Positions 11,995 through 46,658 are shown, counted from the stretch's first letter. The stretch: 64,000 nucleotides of DNA from Rikenellaceae bacterium (GCA_031548435.1 JAVBRA010000007.1:67955-131954); one strand, 5' to 3'. Translations and numbers: made by a program. The notes: generated from the sequence alone by a model not told the origin.

Positions 11995-12140
11995 AATGTA
12001 ACCATAAAATTTTATGTAAACATAAAAAAAAAAATCAATTCATGCAACAACAAATGATTAGATATGTTACCGGGAGCCTGAAAAGGGCCGGTTTTTCATC
12101 GTTCCTCTGTTGTAATAAAAACTATACAAGCAACATCCCC

Positions 12141-38905: not shown

Positions 38906-39982
38906 CTACCCCTTTTTGTTCATCACCTCGTTCTGCAGGTTGATGCTCTCGATGTGAATGGCATCGAGCACCTTAGACAAAAACTCCCTGCTCAGCCCCA
39001 GGCTGTCGGATTTGGAGAGGAAACGGTCGACCACACTGCTCCAGCGCGTGCTCTGGAGGATGGTCACATCGTTGTCGCGCTTGATCTCGCCGATTTTCTC
39101 GGCCACCCTCATCCGCTTGGACAGCAGCATGAACACCTCGTTGTCCAGTTGGTCGATCTGGCCGCGCATCTGCATCAGCGCCTGCTGGAACTCGGTTTTG
39201 CCGGTGGCCTCGGACGCCCGCCATTTGATCATCGACAACATCTCGGCCAGCCGTTCGGGAGTAATCTGCTGTGCGGCATCGCTCCAGGCATGGTCCGGGT
39301 CGACGTGGCTTTCGACGATCAGCCCGTCATAGTCGAGGTCGGCGGCCACCTGCGACACCTCGGCCAACCCGATGCGGTTGCCGCAGATGTGCGATGGGTC
39401 GCAGATGACAGGCACCTCGGGCAGGCGGCGCTTCATTTCGATGGCCATGTGCCACATAGGGTTGTTGCGGTATTCGCTGCCTCCGAAGTGCGAGAAGCCG
39501 CGGTGGATCAGCCCCACCTGTTCGATGTCCGCCTTCTGGATGCGTTGCATGGCCCCGGCCCACAGATCGAGATCGGGGTTCATCGGGTTTTTCAGCAGCA
39601 CGGCCACATCGGCGCCGCGCAACGCATCGGCGATATCCTGCACGCTGAACGGATTGCCCGTGGTGCGCGCCCCGATCCACAAAATATCAACGCCGAACTC
39701 CAGCGCGCTCTCGACATGTTTGGCCGTAGCCACCTCCACGGCCACAGGCATCCCGGTCTCTTTTTTAATGGCGTTGAGCCACGCCAACCCCTTGAGCCCC
39801 ACGCCCTCGAACATCCCGGGACGGGTGCGCGGCTTCCATATCCCGGCGCGCAGCACATCCACCCGGCCGGTGGCGGCGATGCGGCGGCACGTTTCCATGG
39901 TTTGCTCTTCGGTCTCGGCGCTGCACGGGCCGGCCATGATGAGCGGTTTTTTCGATTTGAGGTTGAATGCTTTGGTTTCCAT
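38906..39982 (-). CDS. Bifunctional 3-deoxy-7-phosphoheptulonate synthase / chorismate mutase
   Basis: 358 aa. The N-terminal DAHP/KDO8P synthase-type barrel has 'IMAGPCSAE' and 'CDPSH'. The C-terminal chorismate mutase type II helix is 'QIDQLDNEVFMLLSKRMRVAEKIGEIK'. Confidence 0.85.
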   Translation of the reverse strand: METKAFNLKSKKPLIMAGPCSAETEEQTMETCRRIAATGRVDVLRAGIWKPRTRPGMFEGVGLKGLAWLNAIKKETGMPVAVEVATAKHVESALEFGVDILWIGARTTGNPFSVQDIADALRGADVAVLLKNPMNPDLDLWAGAMQRIQKADIEQVGLIHRGFSHFGGSEYRNNPMWHMAIEMKRRLPEVPVICDPSHICGNRIGLAEVSQVAADLDYDGLIVESHVDPDHAWSDAAQQITPERLAEMLSMIKWRASEATGKTEFQQALMQMRGQIDQLDNEVFMLLSKRMRVAEKIGEIKRDNDVTILQSTRWSSVVDRFLSKSDSLGLSREFLSKVLDAIHIESINLQNEVMNKKG

Positions 39983-40183
39983 AATATTATCTCTTCATTT
40001 TATTATTTTTTATCTGTCATCCTGAGCGGGGATCTCCCGATCAAGGAAACAACCTTCGTTTTGAAGGAGATCCTCCGTTCAGGATGACACCCCCACAAGG
40101 TGTTTTGCCGGGAGTCCACCGTTCCGGACTAAAAACATCGCCGGACGCAGCAACGCTGCTGCCAATAAACGGATTTGCGGCTC

Positions 40184-41023
40184 CTACTTGATGATCTTCC
40201 GTATCGAGTTGGCTTTCTCCATCGCCGCCGCAAGCCCTTTGGCATCGTCTTTTTCGAGCATGTGGCGGAATATCTGCAACTGGTGGATGTGCTCGCGCAA
40301 CACGTCCAGCACATTGTACTTGTTCTGCATCAGGATCGGCACCCAGGTACTGGGCGAACTCTTGGCCAGACGCACCGTGCTGTCGAAACCGCCGCCCGCC
40401 AGGTCGAAGATGTTCTCCGCCTCGCGTTCTTTTTCCAGCACCGTCAGCGCCAGGGCGAACGAGGTGATGTGCGAGATGTGGCTGACATAAGCCACGTGGG
40501 TGTCGTGTTCTTCGGCCTCCATATACTTGATGTTCAGTCCGATGTTGCGATAGATGCCCTCCACCAGCGACAACGCCTGCGGGGCGCTTTTGCCGCGTTC
40601 GCAGATCACCACCGTCTTGCCTTCCATTTTTCCTTTCACCGCCGCTTCGGGCCCGCTGTATTCCGTCCCCCACATGGGGTGCGTGGCCACGAAATTGCCG
40701 CGCCCGGGGTGCCGCGAGATCACTTCGCACAACTCCCCCTTGGTCGATCCCATATCGATCACCACCTGTTTGTCCACCTTGTTCAATATCTTCACCGCCA
40801 GCATGGGGATGGCGCTCACCGGCACGGCCAGCACAATCAGGTCGGCCGCCGCCACCGCCTCGTCCAACTCGGCGATCCGGTCGACGATGCCAAGTTCCAG
40901 CGCCTTGTCGGCATTGGCTTTGTTGCTTTCCACGCCGATCACCTCGTCCACGATTCCCTTCTCTTTGAGGTCGAGGGCGAACGACCCCCCGATCAACCCC
41001 ACACCTATGATCGCCGCTTTCAT
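40184..41023 (-). CDS. tyrA: Prephenate dehydrogenase
   Basis: 279 aa. 'AAIIGVGLIGGSFALDL' is the Rossmann motif. 'HPMWG' is conserved. Confidence 0.85.
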   Translation of the reverse strand: MKAAIIGVGLIGGSFALDLKEKGIVDEVIGVESNKANADKALELGIVDRIAELDEAVAAADLIVLAVPVSAIPMLAVKILNKVDKQVVIDMGSTKGELCEVISRHPGRGNFVATHPMWGTEYSGPEAAVKGKMEGKTVVICERGKSAPQALSLVEGIYRNIGLNIKYMEAEEHDTHVAYVSHISHITSFALALTVLEKEREAENIFDLAGGGFDSTVRLAKSSPSTWVPILMQNKYNVLDVLREHIHQLQIFRHMLEKDDAKGLAAAMEKANSIRKIIK

Positions 41024-42183
41024 TCCTTGATCTTGTTTAATGCGTTGGTCAATGTCCGTTCGTCGGCACAGAGGCTCACACGCATGTAGTCGTTGCCTTC
41101 GCTGCCGAAGATGCCGCCGGGAGTGATGAACACGCCCTTCTCGTACAGCAGTTTATCGCTGTACCGGTAGCAATCCCCCACCCCTTCGGGCAGCCGCCCC
41201 CAGATGAACAACCCCGCCTGATCCGGCTCGCAGACACAGCCGATCGCCTCCATGATCTTGTATCCCAGCTCTTCCCGGCCGCGATACACCTTATCGACCG
41301 AGGCGTACCACTCGTCGCCGAGCGACAGGGCATAGGCCGCAGCCGCCTGCAACGGATAGAACATCCCCGAGTCCATGTTGCTTTTGAAGCGCAGCACCTC
41401 CTGCACGCGCTGACTGTCGGCCAGCAGAAAGCCAATGCGCCAACCGGCCATGTTATGGCTCTTGCTCAGCGAATTGAGCTCTATCGCCACCTCTTTCGCC
41501 CCTTCGACCTGCAACAGGCTCAGGGGTTTGTCGTTGCGGATGAAACTATACGGATTGTCGTGCACGATCAGGATGTTGTGCCTGCGTCCGAAGGCCACGA
41601 TCCGCTCGAACAATTCCACCGTCGGCTTGGCCCCGGTAGGCATCTGGGGGTAGTTGACCATCATCATCTTCACCCCTTGCAGCCCCTGCTTTTCGATTGC
41701 TTCGAAGTCGGGCATCCACCCGCCCGCAGCCGTCAGCCGGTATTGCTCGCACACGCCGCCCGAAAGCGCCACGGCCGAAGTGTAGGTCGGATATCCGGGA
41801 TTGGGCACCAGCACTTTATCTCCCTTGTTCAGGTAAGCCATGCAGATATGCATCAGCCCCTCTTTCGATCCCACCAGCGGCAGGATCTCCGACGCCGGAT
41901 CAAGCGCCACGCCATAGCGGCGGGCATACCACGCCGCAGCGGCATTGCGCAGCACCGGCGCTCCGACGTACGACTGGTAGCCGTGGTTTCCCGGCTTGGC
42001 GGCCTCGCGCGCAAGGGTTTCGATCACGCCCGCTGCCGGCGGCAGGTCGGGGCTCCCCACTCCCAGACTGATAATCTCACGCCCCTGGGCCCTCAGCCCG
42101 TCGATCTCGCGCAGTTTCTTCGAGAAGAAATATTCTCCGACCCCCTCGAGGCGTTCCGACGGATGGATGTCAATCAAACTCAT
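41020..42183 (-). CDS. Class I/II pyridoxal-phosphate aminotransferase (aromatic/prephenate aminotransferase context)
   Basis: 387 aa. 'NPGYPTY' and 'NSLSKSHNMAGWRIGF' (PLP-Lys). 4-nt overlaps with both neighbours. Confidence 0.85.
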   Translation of the reverse strand: MSLIDIHPSERLEGVGEYFFSKKLREIDGLRAQGREIISLGVGSPDLPPAAGVIETLAREAAKPGNHGYQSYVGAPVLRNAAAAWYARRYGVALDPASEILPLVGSKEGLMHICMAYLNKGDKVLVPNPGYPTYTSAVALSGGVCEQYRLTAAGGWMPDFEAIEKQGLQGVKMMMVNYPQMPTGAKPTVELFERIVAFGRRHNILIVHDNPYSFIRNDKPLSLLQVEGAKEVAIELNSLSKSHNMAGWRIGFLLADSQRVQEVLRFKSNMDSGMFYPLQAAAAYALSLGDEWYASVDKVYRGREELGYKIMEAIGCVCEPDQAGLFIWGRLPEGVGDCYRYSDKLLYEKGVFITPGGIFGSEGNDYMRVSLCADERTLTNALNKIKE

Positions 42184-43043
42184 ATCTCGGTTCCTTTTTT
42201 ATAAACTCCGTAAACATGCAACTCTTCGCTGGCGTTGCTCATCTTTTCAACCACCTGATTGAAAACGCGGATGTCCGGGAACTCCATATCCACATGGAAC
42301 AGGTAGTGCCACGGCTCGCTGGGGATGGGGTAAGACTGCAACTTGGTCATATTCACCGGCGCATCTTCCATCTGTTTGAGCACCGAGAACAACGACCCGT
42401 GCTCGTTGCCGATCTTGAAATAAAGCGACGCCTTGTCGGGGCCCTCAACAACTATGCCGGCGTCGGCGGCCTTGATAATCAAGAACCGGGTATAGTTGTT
42501 CTTGATGGTGTTGATATTCGGAACAATGACTTTCAGCCCGTACAGTTCGGCAGCGCGTTGGCTCGCTATGGCGGCGGCGTTGCGCAATCCTTTTTCGGCA
42601 ATCATCTTGGCGCTGAGGGCCGTATCTTCATACTCGACCAACTTCCAATCTTTTGTATCGAGGTAATCGGCACACTGCAACAGGGCCATCGGGTGCGAAT
42701 AGACCTCCTCCACATCGTCCTCAGAGACATCGGGCAACGCCATCAGGTTCTGCCGGATGCGCAGGTAGATCTCGCCCACCACCTGCAACGAGCTGTTTTG
42801 CAGCAAACTGTAATTAGGCAGGATGCTCCCGGCAATTGAATTCTCGATGGCCATCACCCCCACATCGGCGTCTTTGGCCGCAACCGCCGCCGCCAGCTTG
42901 CGGAACGTGCTGCAACACAACAGTTCGATCTCCCGGCCGATGAACCCTTCGGCCGCAATCTGGTGGAAACTCCCTTCGTACCCCTGGATAGCCACCCTCA
43001 ACCTTTTCCCCTCTTTGGGATACCCCACAATTCCTTCGTTCAT
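42180..43043 (-). CDS. pheA: Prephenate dehydratase
   Basis: 287 aa. 'RVAIQGYEGSFHQ', 'NYTRFLII' and a C-terminal ACT-like domain. Confidence 0.85.
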   Translation of the reverse strand: MNEGIVGYPKEGKRLRVAIQGYEGSFHQIAAEGFIGREIELLCCSTFRKLAAAVAAKDADVGVMAIENSIAGSILPNYSLLQNSSLQVVGEIYLRIRQNLMALPDVSEDDVEEVYSHPMALLQCADYLDTKDWKLVEYEDTALSAKMIAEKGLRNAAAIASQRAAELYGLKVIVPNINTIKNNYTRFLIIKAADAGIVVEGPDKASLYFKIGNEHGSLFSVLKQMEDAPVNMTKLQSYPIPSEPWHYLFHVDMEFPDIRVFNQVVEKMSNASEELHVYGVYKKGTEI

Positions 43044-43056
43044 TCTCGTTTAAATT

Positions 43057-43087
43057 AAAAGATCCCGGCCTTTTCCGGGCCGGGATC
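43057..43087 (-). terminator. Attenuator terminator immediately upstream of pheA
   Basis: On the minus strand, GATCCCGGCC-CGGAAAA-GGCCGGGATC is followed by TTTT. It ends 14 nt before the pheA ATG. Confidence 0.65.
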
Positions 43088-43111
43088 CTATGATTCGATG
43101 ATTTGCTATCA

Positions 43112-43195
43112 TTATTCACAAAGAAGTCCCAGCCCACCTTTTTTAAAAAAGTAGACGAAGTAAAAATAAAAACCGAAATAACGGGCCATTTTCAT
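43112..43195 (-). CDS. Phe/Tyr-rich leader peptide of the aromatic amino acid operon
   Basis: A 27-codon ORF, not in the supplied track: MKMARYFGFYFYFVYFFKKGGLGLLCE*. Ten of twelve consecutive codons (6-17) are Phe or Tyr. It is followed by the terminator hairpin. Confidence 0.6.
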   Translation of the reverse strand: MKMARYFGFYFYFVYFFKKGGLGLLCE

Positions 43196-43546
43196 CTCAA
43201 TGGGATCTCTTTGGGGACAAAGATAAAGTAAAAACAGGCATATTGTTCCGCATCGGGCATATTTTTTTGAGAATCAGCGGATTTTTTGCCCTGCTTGCAT
43301 CCAACAAACAACTGTATTTCAGATGTTTACATCATGCAACAGGCGGCATTCACGGGTTCGGCCGCATCCAAACCGCCGCAGGATCAAAAAACAAACAAGT
43401 CCAACGCACTGAAAATGTTTTGATTGAAGCAACCCATCCGCATTCGGCATCTAACTTTGAATCGTTTTTATTTGCAAAAAACACAGCAAAGCTTTATCTT
43501 TGCACCTCTTTCGGACGGCGACCGCCGCTCTGAAAGGCCAAAGCGA

Positions 43547-43629
43547 GGGAGAATACCAGAGTGGCCAAATGGGGCAGACTGTAAATCTGCTGACGTACGT
43601 CTTCGGTGGTTCGAATCCATCTTCTCCCA
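43547..43629 (+). tRNA. tRNA-Tyr (anticodon GTA)
   Basis: Acceptor GGGAGAA/TTCTCCC. Anticodon loop CTGTAAA. Long variable arm. T-loop GGTTCGAATCC. Confidence 0.9.
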
Positions 43630-43644
43630 CGAAAAAACGATTTT

Positions 43645-43717
43645 GCGGAAATAGCTCAGTTGGTAGAGCACAACCTTGCCAAGGTTGGGGTCGCGAGTTC
43701 GAGTCTCGTTTTCCGCT
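43645..43717 (+). tRNA. tRNA-Gly (anticodon GCC)
   Basis: Acceptor GCGGAAA/TTTCCGC. D-arm TAGCTCAGTTGGTAGAGC. Anticodon stem CAACC/GGTTG with loop TTGCCAA. T-loop AGTTCGAGTCT. Confidence 0.9.
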
Positions 43718-43722
43718 CTGTT

Positions 43723-44635: not shown

Positions 44636-45306
44636 CAGGGTACGATCAGTCCGTCGACCATTTCGATCTTGCGGTCGGACATCCCGGCCAGCGACTCATC
44701 GTGGGTGACAATGACAAACGTGTGGCCGAACTTGTCGCGCAGTTCAAAGAACAGGTTGTGCAACTCCTGCCGGTTTTTTGTGTCGAGGTTGCCCGACGGC
44801 TCGTCGGCCAGGATCACCGGAGGATTGTTGATCAGCGCCCGGGCCACAGCCACGCGCTGCTGCTCGCCTCCCGACAGTTCGGCCGGTTTGTGCGTCAGCC
44901 GGTGCCCCATGCCCAGCAGTTCCAGCAACTCTTTGGCCCTCGCTTCGACCTCGGTTCGGGAGCGGCGGGCGATGTAGCCAGGAATGCACACGTTCTCGAA
45001 CGCGTTGAACTCGGGCAGCAAGTGGTGGAACTGGAACACGAACCCGATGCGGCTGCCCCGAAACTGCGAGATATTTTTCCGCCCCAGGCGATGCACCTGG
45101 ATGCCGTCGATGACGATTTCGCCGCTGTCGGGATCGCTCAACGTGCCCAGGATCTGCAACAGGGTGGTTTTGCCCGCCCCGCTCGGCCCCACGATCGACA
45201 CCACTTCGCCCCGGCCCACGCTCAGGTCGATGCCCTTGAGCACCTGCAGGTCGCCGTACGATTTCTTAATTCCTTTGGTCGTTATCATTTTCCGAATAGA
45301 TTTCAA
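44635..45306 (-). CDS. ABC transporter ATP-binding protein (LolD-like)
   Basis: 223 aa. '[12 protein letters not shown]', '[15 protein letters not shown]', '[11 protein letters not shown]'. Confidence 0.85.
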
Positions 45307-46120
45307 ACAATTTCACCACCTGCACCGCCTCGGACACATCGTGCACCCGCAGGATCGACACTCCCTGCCGCAACAGTTCCCAGTTGAGGGCCGCCGTTCC
45401 AATGAGCGCACGATCGGGATCGACGCCCAGCGGCTTCCAGATCATCGACTTGCGCGAGAGGCCGCCCAACACCGGACACCCGAGTCCGACCAACCGGTGC
45501 AGCTCCTTGAGCAGTATGTAGTTCTGCCGTACGTCTTTCGAGAACCCGAACCCCGGATCAACAATCAACTCCCGGATCCCCGCCCGGCGGCACTGGGCGA
45601 TTTTCTCGGCGAACCAGGCAAGCACCTCACCCGCCACGTCGCCGTAAAGCAGGTTCGGCGCGTCGTTCATGGTGGCCGGAGCGCCCCGCATATGCATGGC
45701 CACGTAAGGCAGGCCGAGCTCCGCCACCACCGGAATCATCTCGGGGTCGAGCCCGCCGCCCGAAATATCGTTGACCATCACCGGGCCAAACCGCTCCACC
45801 ACCGCACGAACCACCTGCGAGCGGAACGTGTCGACCGAAACCACCGCCTGTGGGGCCAGCCGCACAGCCGCTTCCACTCCCCTCAACACCCGTTCGGTCT
45901 CTTCGCCCGCCGGAACATCGGCCGCACCTGGCCGCGAGGAATACCCCCCCACGTCAAGGATCGCCGCTCCGCCGCGGGCCGCCTTTACAACCATCGCCTC
46001 AAGCCCGCCGGGGCCCGACGCCCGGCTGCCGGCATAGAACGAGTCGGGCGTCACGTTGACGATCGCCATCACCGCCGGATGCGACAGATCGAGCCTTTTC
46101 TCTCCGATTTCGATTGTCAT
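45266..46120 (-). CDS. folP: Dihydropteroate synthase
   Basis: 284 aa. '[15 protein letters not shown]', '[12 protein letters not shown]' and 'VNDISGG'. Confidence 0.9.
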
Positions 46121-46361
46121 GGTTCGCGTTTAATTCTACAAATATATACTTTTGTCCGGGATGTCGGTGCATCCGGCGTTCGTTTGCGTGCTGATACAAA
46201 CGATCTCCCGAACGGCCGAAGGCTCCCGGACGACGACGCGGGCCGGAATCCTGCAGGCCACGGCTTGCATGGAGTGCGCCCCGTAAATTCAGCGGCTTCA
46301 CAGACGCCTTTGTTGCCACGGATCGCTTGGTTGCGATCGCGGCTGAAACAAGGTTTTTGTT

Positions 46362-46658
46362 ATGCAGAATGGGACAGAGCTGCCGACCGCGCCTCTTTTC
46401 CATGCAACGAGCAGCCGCTTTTTCTTCCCGGCTTCGGGCCGGCGCGACCACACCACCGGCGGCATGGCTCTTGTTTCCAGCTACGGGTACGACTGGTCTG
46501 CCTCGCCGCATAGCGTGACGTTCGGGTACACTCTGTACTCCCATAGCACCAATGTCGCCCCGGGCTTCAACTACCTGCGTGCATATGGGCTGCCGGTGCG
46601 TTGTCTCCAAGCGTTTACGATCGTCGTCCGTTTTTTTAATTTGATCCCATGGAACTGA
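46362..46658 (+). pseudogene. C-terminal remnant of a FISUMP (Fibrobacter succinogenes major paralogous) domain protein
   Basis: The 98-aa ORF has 'FFFPASGRRDHTTGG...SYGYDWSASP...RAYGLPVRCLQ', matching the C-terminal pattern LPAAGYR...G.YWSS...G.SVRC. It lacks the signal peptide and N-terminal half, and an in-frame stop lies 15 nt upstream of the ATG. Confidence 0.45.

Follow-up and report, generated by a model that had tools for sequence, protein, structure and literature searches.

The window, by which we mean the whole 64,000-nt stretch of DNA analyzed here (Rikenellaceae bacterium, GCA_031548435.1, JAVBRA010000007.1:67955-131954), carries on its minus strand a four-gene operon for phenylalanine and tyrosine synthesis, preceded by a short Phe/Tyr-rich open reading frame and a GC-rich hairpin. 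Coordinates of all features are collected in Table 1. The initial annotation, made from the sequence alone, had placed a pheA-tyrA-DAHP synthase operon downstream of the leader, and Pfam matches confirm the assignment. The order dehydratase, aminotransferase, prephenate dehydrogenase (then DAHP synthase) recurs in 41 of the 42 relatives with enough downstream DNA. The best matches to the window's prephenate dehydratase are 64-65% identical, and the named ones come from Rikenellaceae or Alistipes; the window DNA itself was found in an invertebrate-gut metagenome.

Table 1. Features of the pheA leader region and the operon downstream, with positions counted from the first nucleotide of the window. 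Leader features are listed in order of transcription, followed by the operon and its genes.
Feature	Position	Strand	Basis or remark
Predicted Bacteroidota sigma-A -7 box, TATCTTTG	43218..43225	-	consensus TAnnTTTG
Leader ORF, 27 codons + TAA	43112..43195	-	peptide MKMARYFGFYFYFVYFFKKGGLGLLCE
Regulatory codon run, codons 6-17	43145..43180	-	6 Phe (UUU/UUC) + 4 Tyr (UAU/UAC)
Segment 1, GUCUACUUUUU, codons 14-17	43146..43156	-	5' arm of 1:2 hairpin
Segment 2	43116..43142	-	1:2 hairpin 3' arm + antiterminator core + extension
Segment 2 part, AAAAGGUGGGC	43142-43132	-	3' arm of 1:2 hairpin
Segment 2 part, GGGCUGGGA	43135-43127	-	antiterminator core
Segment 2 part, UCUU and GUGA	43124-43116	-	antiterminator extension
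Small internal hairpin, AUGAU/AUCAU	43098..43112	-	caps antiterminator stem; present in the full-length, antiterminator and nascent-RNA folds
Segment 3, terminator 5' arm, AGGAUCCCGGCC	43089-43078	-	folding + alignment columns 102-111
Segment 3, extended	43093-43077	-	antiterminator 3' strand
Segment 4, terminator 3' arm, GGCCGGGAUCUU	43070-43059	-	element spans 43057..43070
Regulated operon	38906..43043	-	four genes, Pfam
Prephenate dehydratase (pheA)	43043-42180	-	PF00800
Class I/II aminotransferase	42183-41020	-	PF00155
Prephenate dehydrogenase	41023-40184	-	PF02153 + PF20463
DAHP synthase fused to chorismate mutase	39982-38906	-	PF00793 + PF01817

Read on the minus strand, the leader ORF extends from an ATG at 43195 to a TAA at 43114-43112, with a further in-frame ATG at 43189 as an alternative start. 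Phe or Tyr occupies ten of twelve consecutive codons, and a six-frame scan of the whole 64-kb window found this to be the sole such stretch. The runner-up for Phe/Tyr density (8 of 12 codons at about 12033 on the minus strand, FFFYVYIKFYGY) was rejected as a leader peptide: it lies in a T-rich stretch (about 12000-12040, minus strand) just 5' of a 281-aa ORF (11994-11149), and we regard it as a promoter region in which the codons occur by chance.

A gap of 24 nt separates the leader stop codon from GATCCCGGCC (43087), within the 5' arm of a GC-rich hairpin. Folding gives this terminator hairpin 12 bp, AGGATCCCGGCC/GGCCGGGATCTT, pairing 43089-43078 with 43070-43059 across a 7-nt loop (-22.6 kcal/mol, z = -4.6). 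The U tract that accompanies it, UCUUUU (43062-43057) and then AAUUU, is short and interrupted in the window (UCUUUUAAUUU), compared to 6-10 U in relatives; the last U of its UUUU run is at 43057, and the pheA ATG follows 14 nt on, at 43043. Within the leader, GGGCUGGGA (43135-43127) is complementary to UCCCGGCCC (43085-43077) over 9 bp, one of them G-U. The antiterminator obtained by folding is longer than this core (-25.8 kcal/mol, z = -3.9), and the AUGAU/AUCAU hairpin within it starts at the final base of the leader stop codon. The 1:2 hairpin has 11 bp in the window (-10.2 kcal/mol, z = -4.2). Most of this anatomy had already been described in the initial annotation, and re-reading of the minus strand and folding uphold it: the 27-codon ORF with its Phe/Tyr run at codons 6-17, the stop-to-hairpin spacing, the hairpin with TTTT ending just short of pheA, and the nine-position complementarity of codons 21-23 to the terminator 5' arm. 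The stem, put at 10 bp there, is lengthened by folding.

We asked how widely this arrangement occurs. A scan of a genome collection with the window's prephenate dehydratase gave only three loci, so an alignment-based scan of metagenomes was needed; the loci gathered comprise 3 from genomes, 80 from metagenomes, and 4 around Alistipes proteins. Leaders were sought in the 450 nt 5' of every prephenate dehydratase gene. At 76 loci there is an ORF of 19-32 codons that starts with ATG and has an FYFYF-type run. Eight loci are without one: in three the contig ends within the run and truncates the ORF, one has a GTG-started ORF, three have less than 75 nt of upstream DNA, and only L004 is without any leader. 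If the shared layout is defined as an ORF of 19-32 codons with at least two Phe and at least two Tyr, an antiterminator segment that begins 5-9 nt past the final Phe/Tyr codon, and a terminator based on TCCCGG/CCGGGA, it is found in 80 of the 81 Bacteroidota loci for which 130 nt or more of upstream sequence is available (76 with complete ORFs and 4 with cut or GTG-started ones). Among the carriers are gut Rikenellaceae (e.g., MNQLSPFFGYYFYFYFTKSGLGSRCL), a gut Alistipes that is widespread (MNMNFFFFKRFYYYRANGRDTIC), Alistipes sp. OttesenSCG-928-L06 (MKFSVNYFGFYFYFYFSKNRPGPCMC), Kriegella (Flavobacteriaceae), and many Bacteroidota from soil (…YRWFYFYYFFSQKPGLLLLK).

Each of the 71 distinct leader peptides has two or more Phe and two or more Tyr, with means of 4.9 and 4.2, respectively. 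Both synonymous codons are in use for each amino acid (TTT 259, TTC 91, TAT 180, and TAC 116 across the family), so it is codon identity, not nucleotide sequence, that is conserved in the run. The initial annotation had suggested that one leader senses both amino acids for an operon that makes both; the composition of the 71 peptides, along with the presence of enzymes for both branches in 41 of 42 loci, agrees with such dual sensing, and codons for Phe and Tyr together fit an operon serving both branches of the pathway. A leave-one-out profile (nhmmer), from which the window was excluded, has a single significant match in the window, at 43154-43057 on the minus strand (E = 1.3e-8). Judged by its sequence, the window element is thus a member of a Bacteroidota family of pheA Phe/Tyr leaders, located directly 5' of the prephenate dehydratase gene.

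One member of this family has been reported before, the Flavobacterium psychrophilum pheA leader element THC0290_N_0195 (Guerin et al., 2021, ISME Commun; PMC9723704, SI D9 and Table S7). The published entry gives a 27-aa leader (MNTNNTFYSNNSFYFYWNIGRDCYMVI), a mapped transcription start, and a 170-nt 5' region; it describes read-through under specific conditions, with maximal pheA operon expression in minimal medium, and a leader that is a separate transcribed segment whose level is unlike that of the coding sequence (PMC9723704). Its authors found no Rfam hit for the element and describe it as conserved in Flavobacteriaceae (PMC9723704). It matches our family profile with 19.7 bits (E = 4e-5), shares the position 5' of pheA and an aminotransferase gene as well as a 27-aa leader with an FYFY run, and has the same pairing between the codons past the run (GGGAUUGU) and the terminator 5' arm (ACAAUCCC). 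By these sequence comparisons, it and the window element are members of the same family. They differ in that F. psychrophilum belongs to the Flavobacteriales and the window to the Bacteroidales (Rikenellaceae), and in that aromatic codons are fewer in the F. psychrophilum leader and include one Trp. As published, the element is an entry in a table, without the antiterminator, the covariation, or the phylum-wide spread; what we add is the spread, the covariation of both helices, the strict Phe-plus-Tyr composition, and the predicted near-leaderless arrangement in many soil lineages.

The helices of the element were examined across the family. A hairpin with a T run is present in 72 of the 76 loci, and the terminator nearly always reads (A/G)(A/T)TCCCGG…CCGGGA(T/C). 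For a terminator, so conserved a sequence is unusual, and we attribute it to a third pairing partner in the leader: the best complement of the 5' arm lies 5-9 nt past the final Phe/Tyr codon and outscores dinucleotide shuffles (z < -2) in 64 of 72 loci. Arm and leader segment change together, as in TCCCGACC/GGTCGGGA, TCCTGACC/GGTCAGGA, GTTCCGCCC/GGGCGGAC, GCCCCCGG/CCGGGGGC, TCCCGCT/AGCGGGA, and GTCCCAT/ATGGGAC. Segment 2 pairs with its own terminator arm at -14.2 kcal/mol, vs. -11.8 +/- 0.24 kcal/mol with the arms of other loci, and none of 5000 permutations gave as good a fit.

An alignment of 61 distinct sequences (MAFFT; alignment A2) supports both alternative helices. RNAalifold recovers the terminator from it, with compensatory changes at 8 of 9 pairs, and the terminator helix is paired in 96.9% of cells over the 61 sequences. 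The antiterminator extends to 20 bp, made up of the CCGGGAUU core and the conserved extension CUUU/AAAG and UGUUGA/UCAACA; it is paired in 82.2% of cells, vs. 29-45% when the partner is slid. Fourteen of its pairs have changed on both sides, and its covariation score was matched by none of 500 shuffles. The leader ORF and hairpin, whose conservation in relatives had been left for checking, therefore recur with covariation in about 80 Bacteroidota loci. The C-terminal half of the peptide is also partly conserved (KPGMLLLK, SGLGxxC), because of the constraints that RNA pairing places on these codons. At three loci (L034, L039, and L066), a U in the terminator 5' arm (AATCCTGGC) faces a G of the 3' arm as a G-U wobble, and the antiterminator segment has an A (GCCAGGATT) opposite that same U; the pairing at this position is thus stronger in the antiterminator than in the terminator.

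The 1:2 hairpin, significant for the window sequence, is only weakly supported family-wide, with 61% of cells paired (in a fixed register) and a mean z of -1.3, and we did not retain it as a conserved anti-antiterminator.

We conclude that the element is very probably a ribosome-mediated attenuator of the Phe/Tyr operon, responsive to charged tRNA-Phe and tRNA-Tyr. Transcription would begin from a Bacteroidota-type promoter near 43212, and a ribosome would translate the 27-codon leader while RNA polymerase moves on. With Phe and Tyr plentiful, the ribosome would cross segment 2 to the stop codon and cover the 5' strand of the antiterminator, part of which would be taken up, behind that ribosome, by the 1:2 hairpin; segment 3 would then pair with segment 4, the terminator would form, and transcription would stop at about 43057, 14 nt before pheA. 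With either amino acid scarce, the ribosome would stall within the ten Phe/Tyr codons and leave segment 2 free to capture segment 3 once it is made, in an interrupted helix of about 17 bp (-25.8 kcal/mol). The terminator would thereby be blocked and the operon transcribed. This is the classical layout of the pheA, trp, and his leaders that the initial annotation had recognized, and both comparative genomics and folding speak for it.

To model the decision, we folded the nascent RNA up to the terminator loop, with the 3' arm not yet made, under masks representing the ribosome. A ribosome stalled mid-run allows the antiterminator to form in 69 of 69 loci, and one covering segment 2 allows it in none of the 69. 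In the window, the share of the terminator 5' arm that pairs with segment 2 is 0.98 for a stalled ribosome and 0 for one that has reached the stop codon. The alternative structures called for in the initial annotation are thus predicted to exchange as it had proposed, and its view that stalling would free segment 2 for the antiterminator is favored by these folds as well as by the covariation. Its further proposal, that a ribosome reaching the stop codon masks segment 2, stands as to outcome, with a masking that is partly indirect. A ribosome at the stop codon itself shields no more than the last 3 nt of GGGCUGGGA together with the 5' strand of the extension, and the GGGC left over is captured in the 11-bp hairpin that involves the final Phe/Tyr codons, GUCUACUUUUU/AAAAGGUGGGC. 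By virtue of this capture, the window has the classical four segments.

When the full-length leader is folded at equilibrium, the terminator is preferred under most ribosome masks. It follows that the switch must operate kinetically, as known attenuators do, and since attenuation is decided co-transcriptionally we do not count the equilibrium folds against the model. A pairing of 5' UTR sequence AAAGAGAUCCCA with UGGGACUUCUUU, seen in the full-length MFE fold, hinges on the assumed transcription start and was discarded because it is lost in the nascent-RNA folds. Untranslated nascent RNA likewise folds into the antiterminator, and from this we infer that termination would require a ribosome closely behind the polymerase. 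We know of no demonstration of such close ribosome-polymerase coupling in Bacteroidota; attenuation presupposes it, so a conserved, covarying leader is indirect evidence that it occurs in this phylum.

The promoter assignment relies on the -7 box given in Table 1. It would put the transcription start near 43212, with a 5' UTR of about 16 nt. Of 73 related loci, 65 have a TAnnTTTG motif no more than 70 nt 5' of the leader ATG; a sigma-70 promoter scan gave no match, as expected for Bacteroidota. The distance from the -7 box to the ATG is 24-47 nt in Rikenellaceae and 22-28 nt in the window, depending on which ATG is used. At the soil loci (L014-L083), the box mostly ends 4-10 nt before the leader ATG, a spacing that would place the leader ORF on a leaderless or nearly leaderless transcript.

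Transcript data were sought in metatranscriptomes. The only one containing the window locus (X2) has patchy contigs, one ending at 43026 and none over 43037-43524; X2 also has 800-nt gaps inside the operon, so the gap at the leader says nothing about the transcription start. Leader words were absent from all RNA runs searched. Better coverage is available for a relative, L062 (-7 box at 2239-2246, leader ATG at 2294), which occurs in four chicken-gut metatranscriptomes. Its contigs start at 2239, 2246, or 2272 in three of the four, and the intergenic DNA just upstream is uncovered in these same three runs. Runs X4 and X7 each have one contig that continues unbroken through the leader and terminator into pheA; in run X6, a contig covering 2272-2437 overlaps by 4 nt the next contig, which reaches pheA. 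The contigs are strandless and may contain DNA, so we regard this evidence of co-transcription as supportive, not decisive. Along with the conserved -7 box and the start mapped 5' of the F. psychrophilum leader, it speaks indirectly against pheA transcripts that begin downstream of 43112, an outcome raised in the initial annotation. In the terminator loop of L062 (2428-2429), metatranscriptome contigs also show inserted A/T and a T>A change, and a 171-nt contig of one run stops exactly where the terminator stem does (2437). This contig could be an attenuated transcript or a mere assembly break at the polymorphism.

The default state and the promoter spacing together raise the tentative possibility, which we rate somewhat below even, that these leaders form an uncurated, Bacteroidota-wide RNA family with dual Phe and Tyr input, absent from Rfam, whose logic is unlike that of E. 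coli in combining a default antiterminator with a leaderless or near-leaderless sensing ORF. Termination would then need a leader-completing ribosome in step with the polymerase, not a strong anti-antiterminator, and in many lineages the sensing ORF would be translated from a leaderless or nearly leaderless transcript.

Among other explanations, the one that best withstands the data grants that the leader senses Phe and Tyr and has it act mainly through pheA translation initiation, mRNA stability, or Rho, not through intrinsic termination. In Bacteroidota, translation initiates without a Shine-Dalgarno sequence and needs unstructured RNA. A hairpin whose end lies only 14-16 nt from the pheA ATG might accordingly block ribosome loading unless the alternative fold forms, and the U tract of the window is weak. 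The relatives argue otherwise, as their hairpins are followed by 6-10 U and lie anywhere from 4 to 109 nt from the pheA ATG, a range over which start-codon occlusion cannot be the conserved function. Separate transcription of the F. psychrophilum leader, at a level unlike that of the coding sequence (PMC9723704), also tells against it, and we consider this mode of action unlikely.

The same pairing segments could instead be recognized by a protein or a small-molecule ligand, in the manner of a riboswitch or a TRAP/PyrR-like attenuator, with the small ORF incidental. The nucleotides of segments 2-4 are indeed unusually conserved across the phylum; the three-way pairing alone accounts for this. 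An incidental ORF would hardly retain its start, frame, and stop in essentially every locus, or the identity of its Phe and Tyr codons despite synonymous variation, and no Rfam riboswitch matches the region. We give this reading very little weight. Nor do we put any more trust in the notion that the ORF encodes a functional small hydrophobic peptide and that the hairpin is its ordinary terminator. Peptide length is conserved and the C-terminal residues partly so; these residues are set by the RNA that pairs with the terminator arm, and third positions are conserved with them. The ORF moreover always lies directly 5' of pheA, with no promoter between, and its composition fits the products of the operon. 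Finally, conservation refutes the idea of a chance ORF beside an unrelated hairpin, for which nothing but the small size of the features speaks: about 80 loci share the layout, with covariation, the window holds no second Phe/Tyr run of this kind, and the leave-one-out profile finds the element at E = 1.3e-8.

Attenuation by a translated leader has several well-known counterparts. The nearest in logic is the E. coli pheL-pheA leader (Rfam Phe_leader, RF01859), which likewise has an ORF rich in codons for the end product, alternative hairpins, and pheA as the first gene. The window matches RF01859 at 19.2 bits (E = 5.7) against a gathering threshold of 55, i.e., with no detectable homology, and its element is analogous to Phe_leader, not a member of it. 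Of the two amino acids, E. coli pheL has codons just for Phe, and it governs pheA alone, tyrA being under separate control; the window leader, in contrast, alternates Phe and Tyr codons, and its operon makes both amino acids and encodes DAHP synthase. Multivalent leaders are known in E. coli from thr (Thr and Ile) and ilvGMEDA (Leu, Val, and Ile). In these, too, one leader holds codons for several amino acids that depend on the operon, although the amino acids and the phylum are different and the sequences unrelated.

Within the Bacteroidetes/Chlorobi, attenuators were reportedly mentioned by Vitreschak and co-workers in 2004. Rfam has no family for the element; the overlaps are all sub-threshold (Phe_leader, BSR0602, and ylbH). 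The Bacteroid-trp leader (RF01692) is a Bacteroidota leader of the leader-peptide type for an aromatic amino-acid operon (Weinberg et al., 2010; PMC2864571). It differs in lying upstream of trpE and having Trp codons, and it has no match in the window region. A literature search turned up no description of the element besides that from F. psychrophilum. With a textbook mechanism and a homolog already published, if only in a supplement, a specialist would be only mildly surprised by the attenuator itself.

For the uncultured Rikenellaceae gut bacterium of the window, the consequence is that one sensor for two amino acids most likely sets the whole Phe/Tyr pathway, including DAHP synthase. By extension, the same control is likely in Alistipes, flavobacteria, and many soil Bacteroidota. 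The alignment of 61 sequences could seed an Rfam family, with which such small ORFs would less often be missed or mis-annotated.

Some further observations concern the surroundings of the leader. Genes for tRNA-Tyr(GTA) (43547-43630, plus strand) and tRNA-Gly(GCC) (43645-43718, plus strand) lie divergently about 350 nt upstream of it, and both tRNAs are highly abundant in the RNA runs. The adjacency is not kept, this position being occupied in relatives by a GerE regulator or an S4-domain gene, and the presence of a tRNA-Tyr gene beside a leader proposed to sense tRNA-Tyr charging is probably a coincidence. Farther upstream, some contigs join 46439/46445 to 46591/46593 and skip about 150 nt at the 3' end of a 509-aa ORF (44984-46513, plus strand). 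We rejected RNA processing as the origin of these joints, which we take to be paralog cross-matches, as they occur in a DNA run too; the joined pieces are matches of about 25 nt inside contigs from elsewhere, and no local repeat was found to account for them. The 509-aa protein has no Pfam or NCBIfam match, and its conserved end, …LPVRCLQA*, may resemble the C-terminal motif of a Fibrobacter-succinogenes-type paralogous domain. Finally, two of the related loci have tandem Phe/Tyr-rich small ORFs (e.g., MIQQTTFGYFYGFYFFWYQK and MLHRFSLSYFYFFFYFFYVVKAGTLL), at -353 and -197 from pheA in L024 and at -301 and -152 in L073, which may be duplicated leaders.
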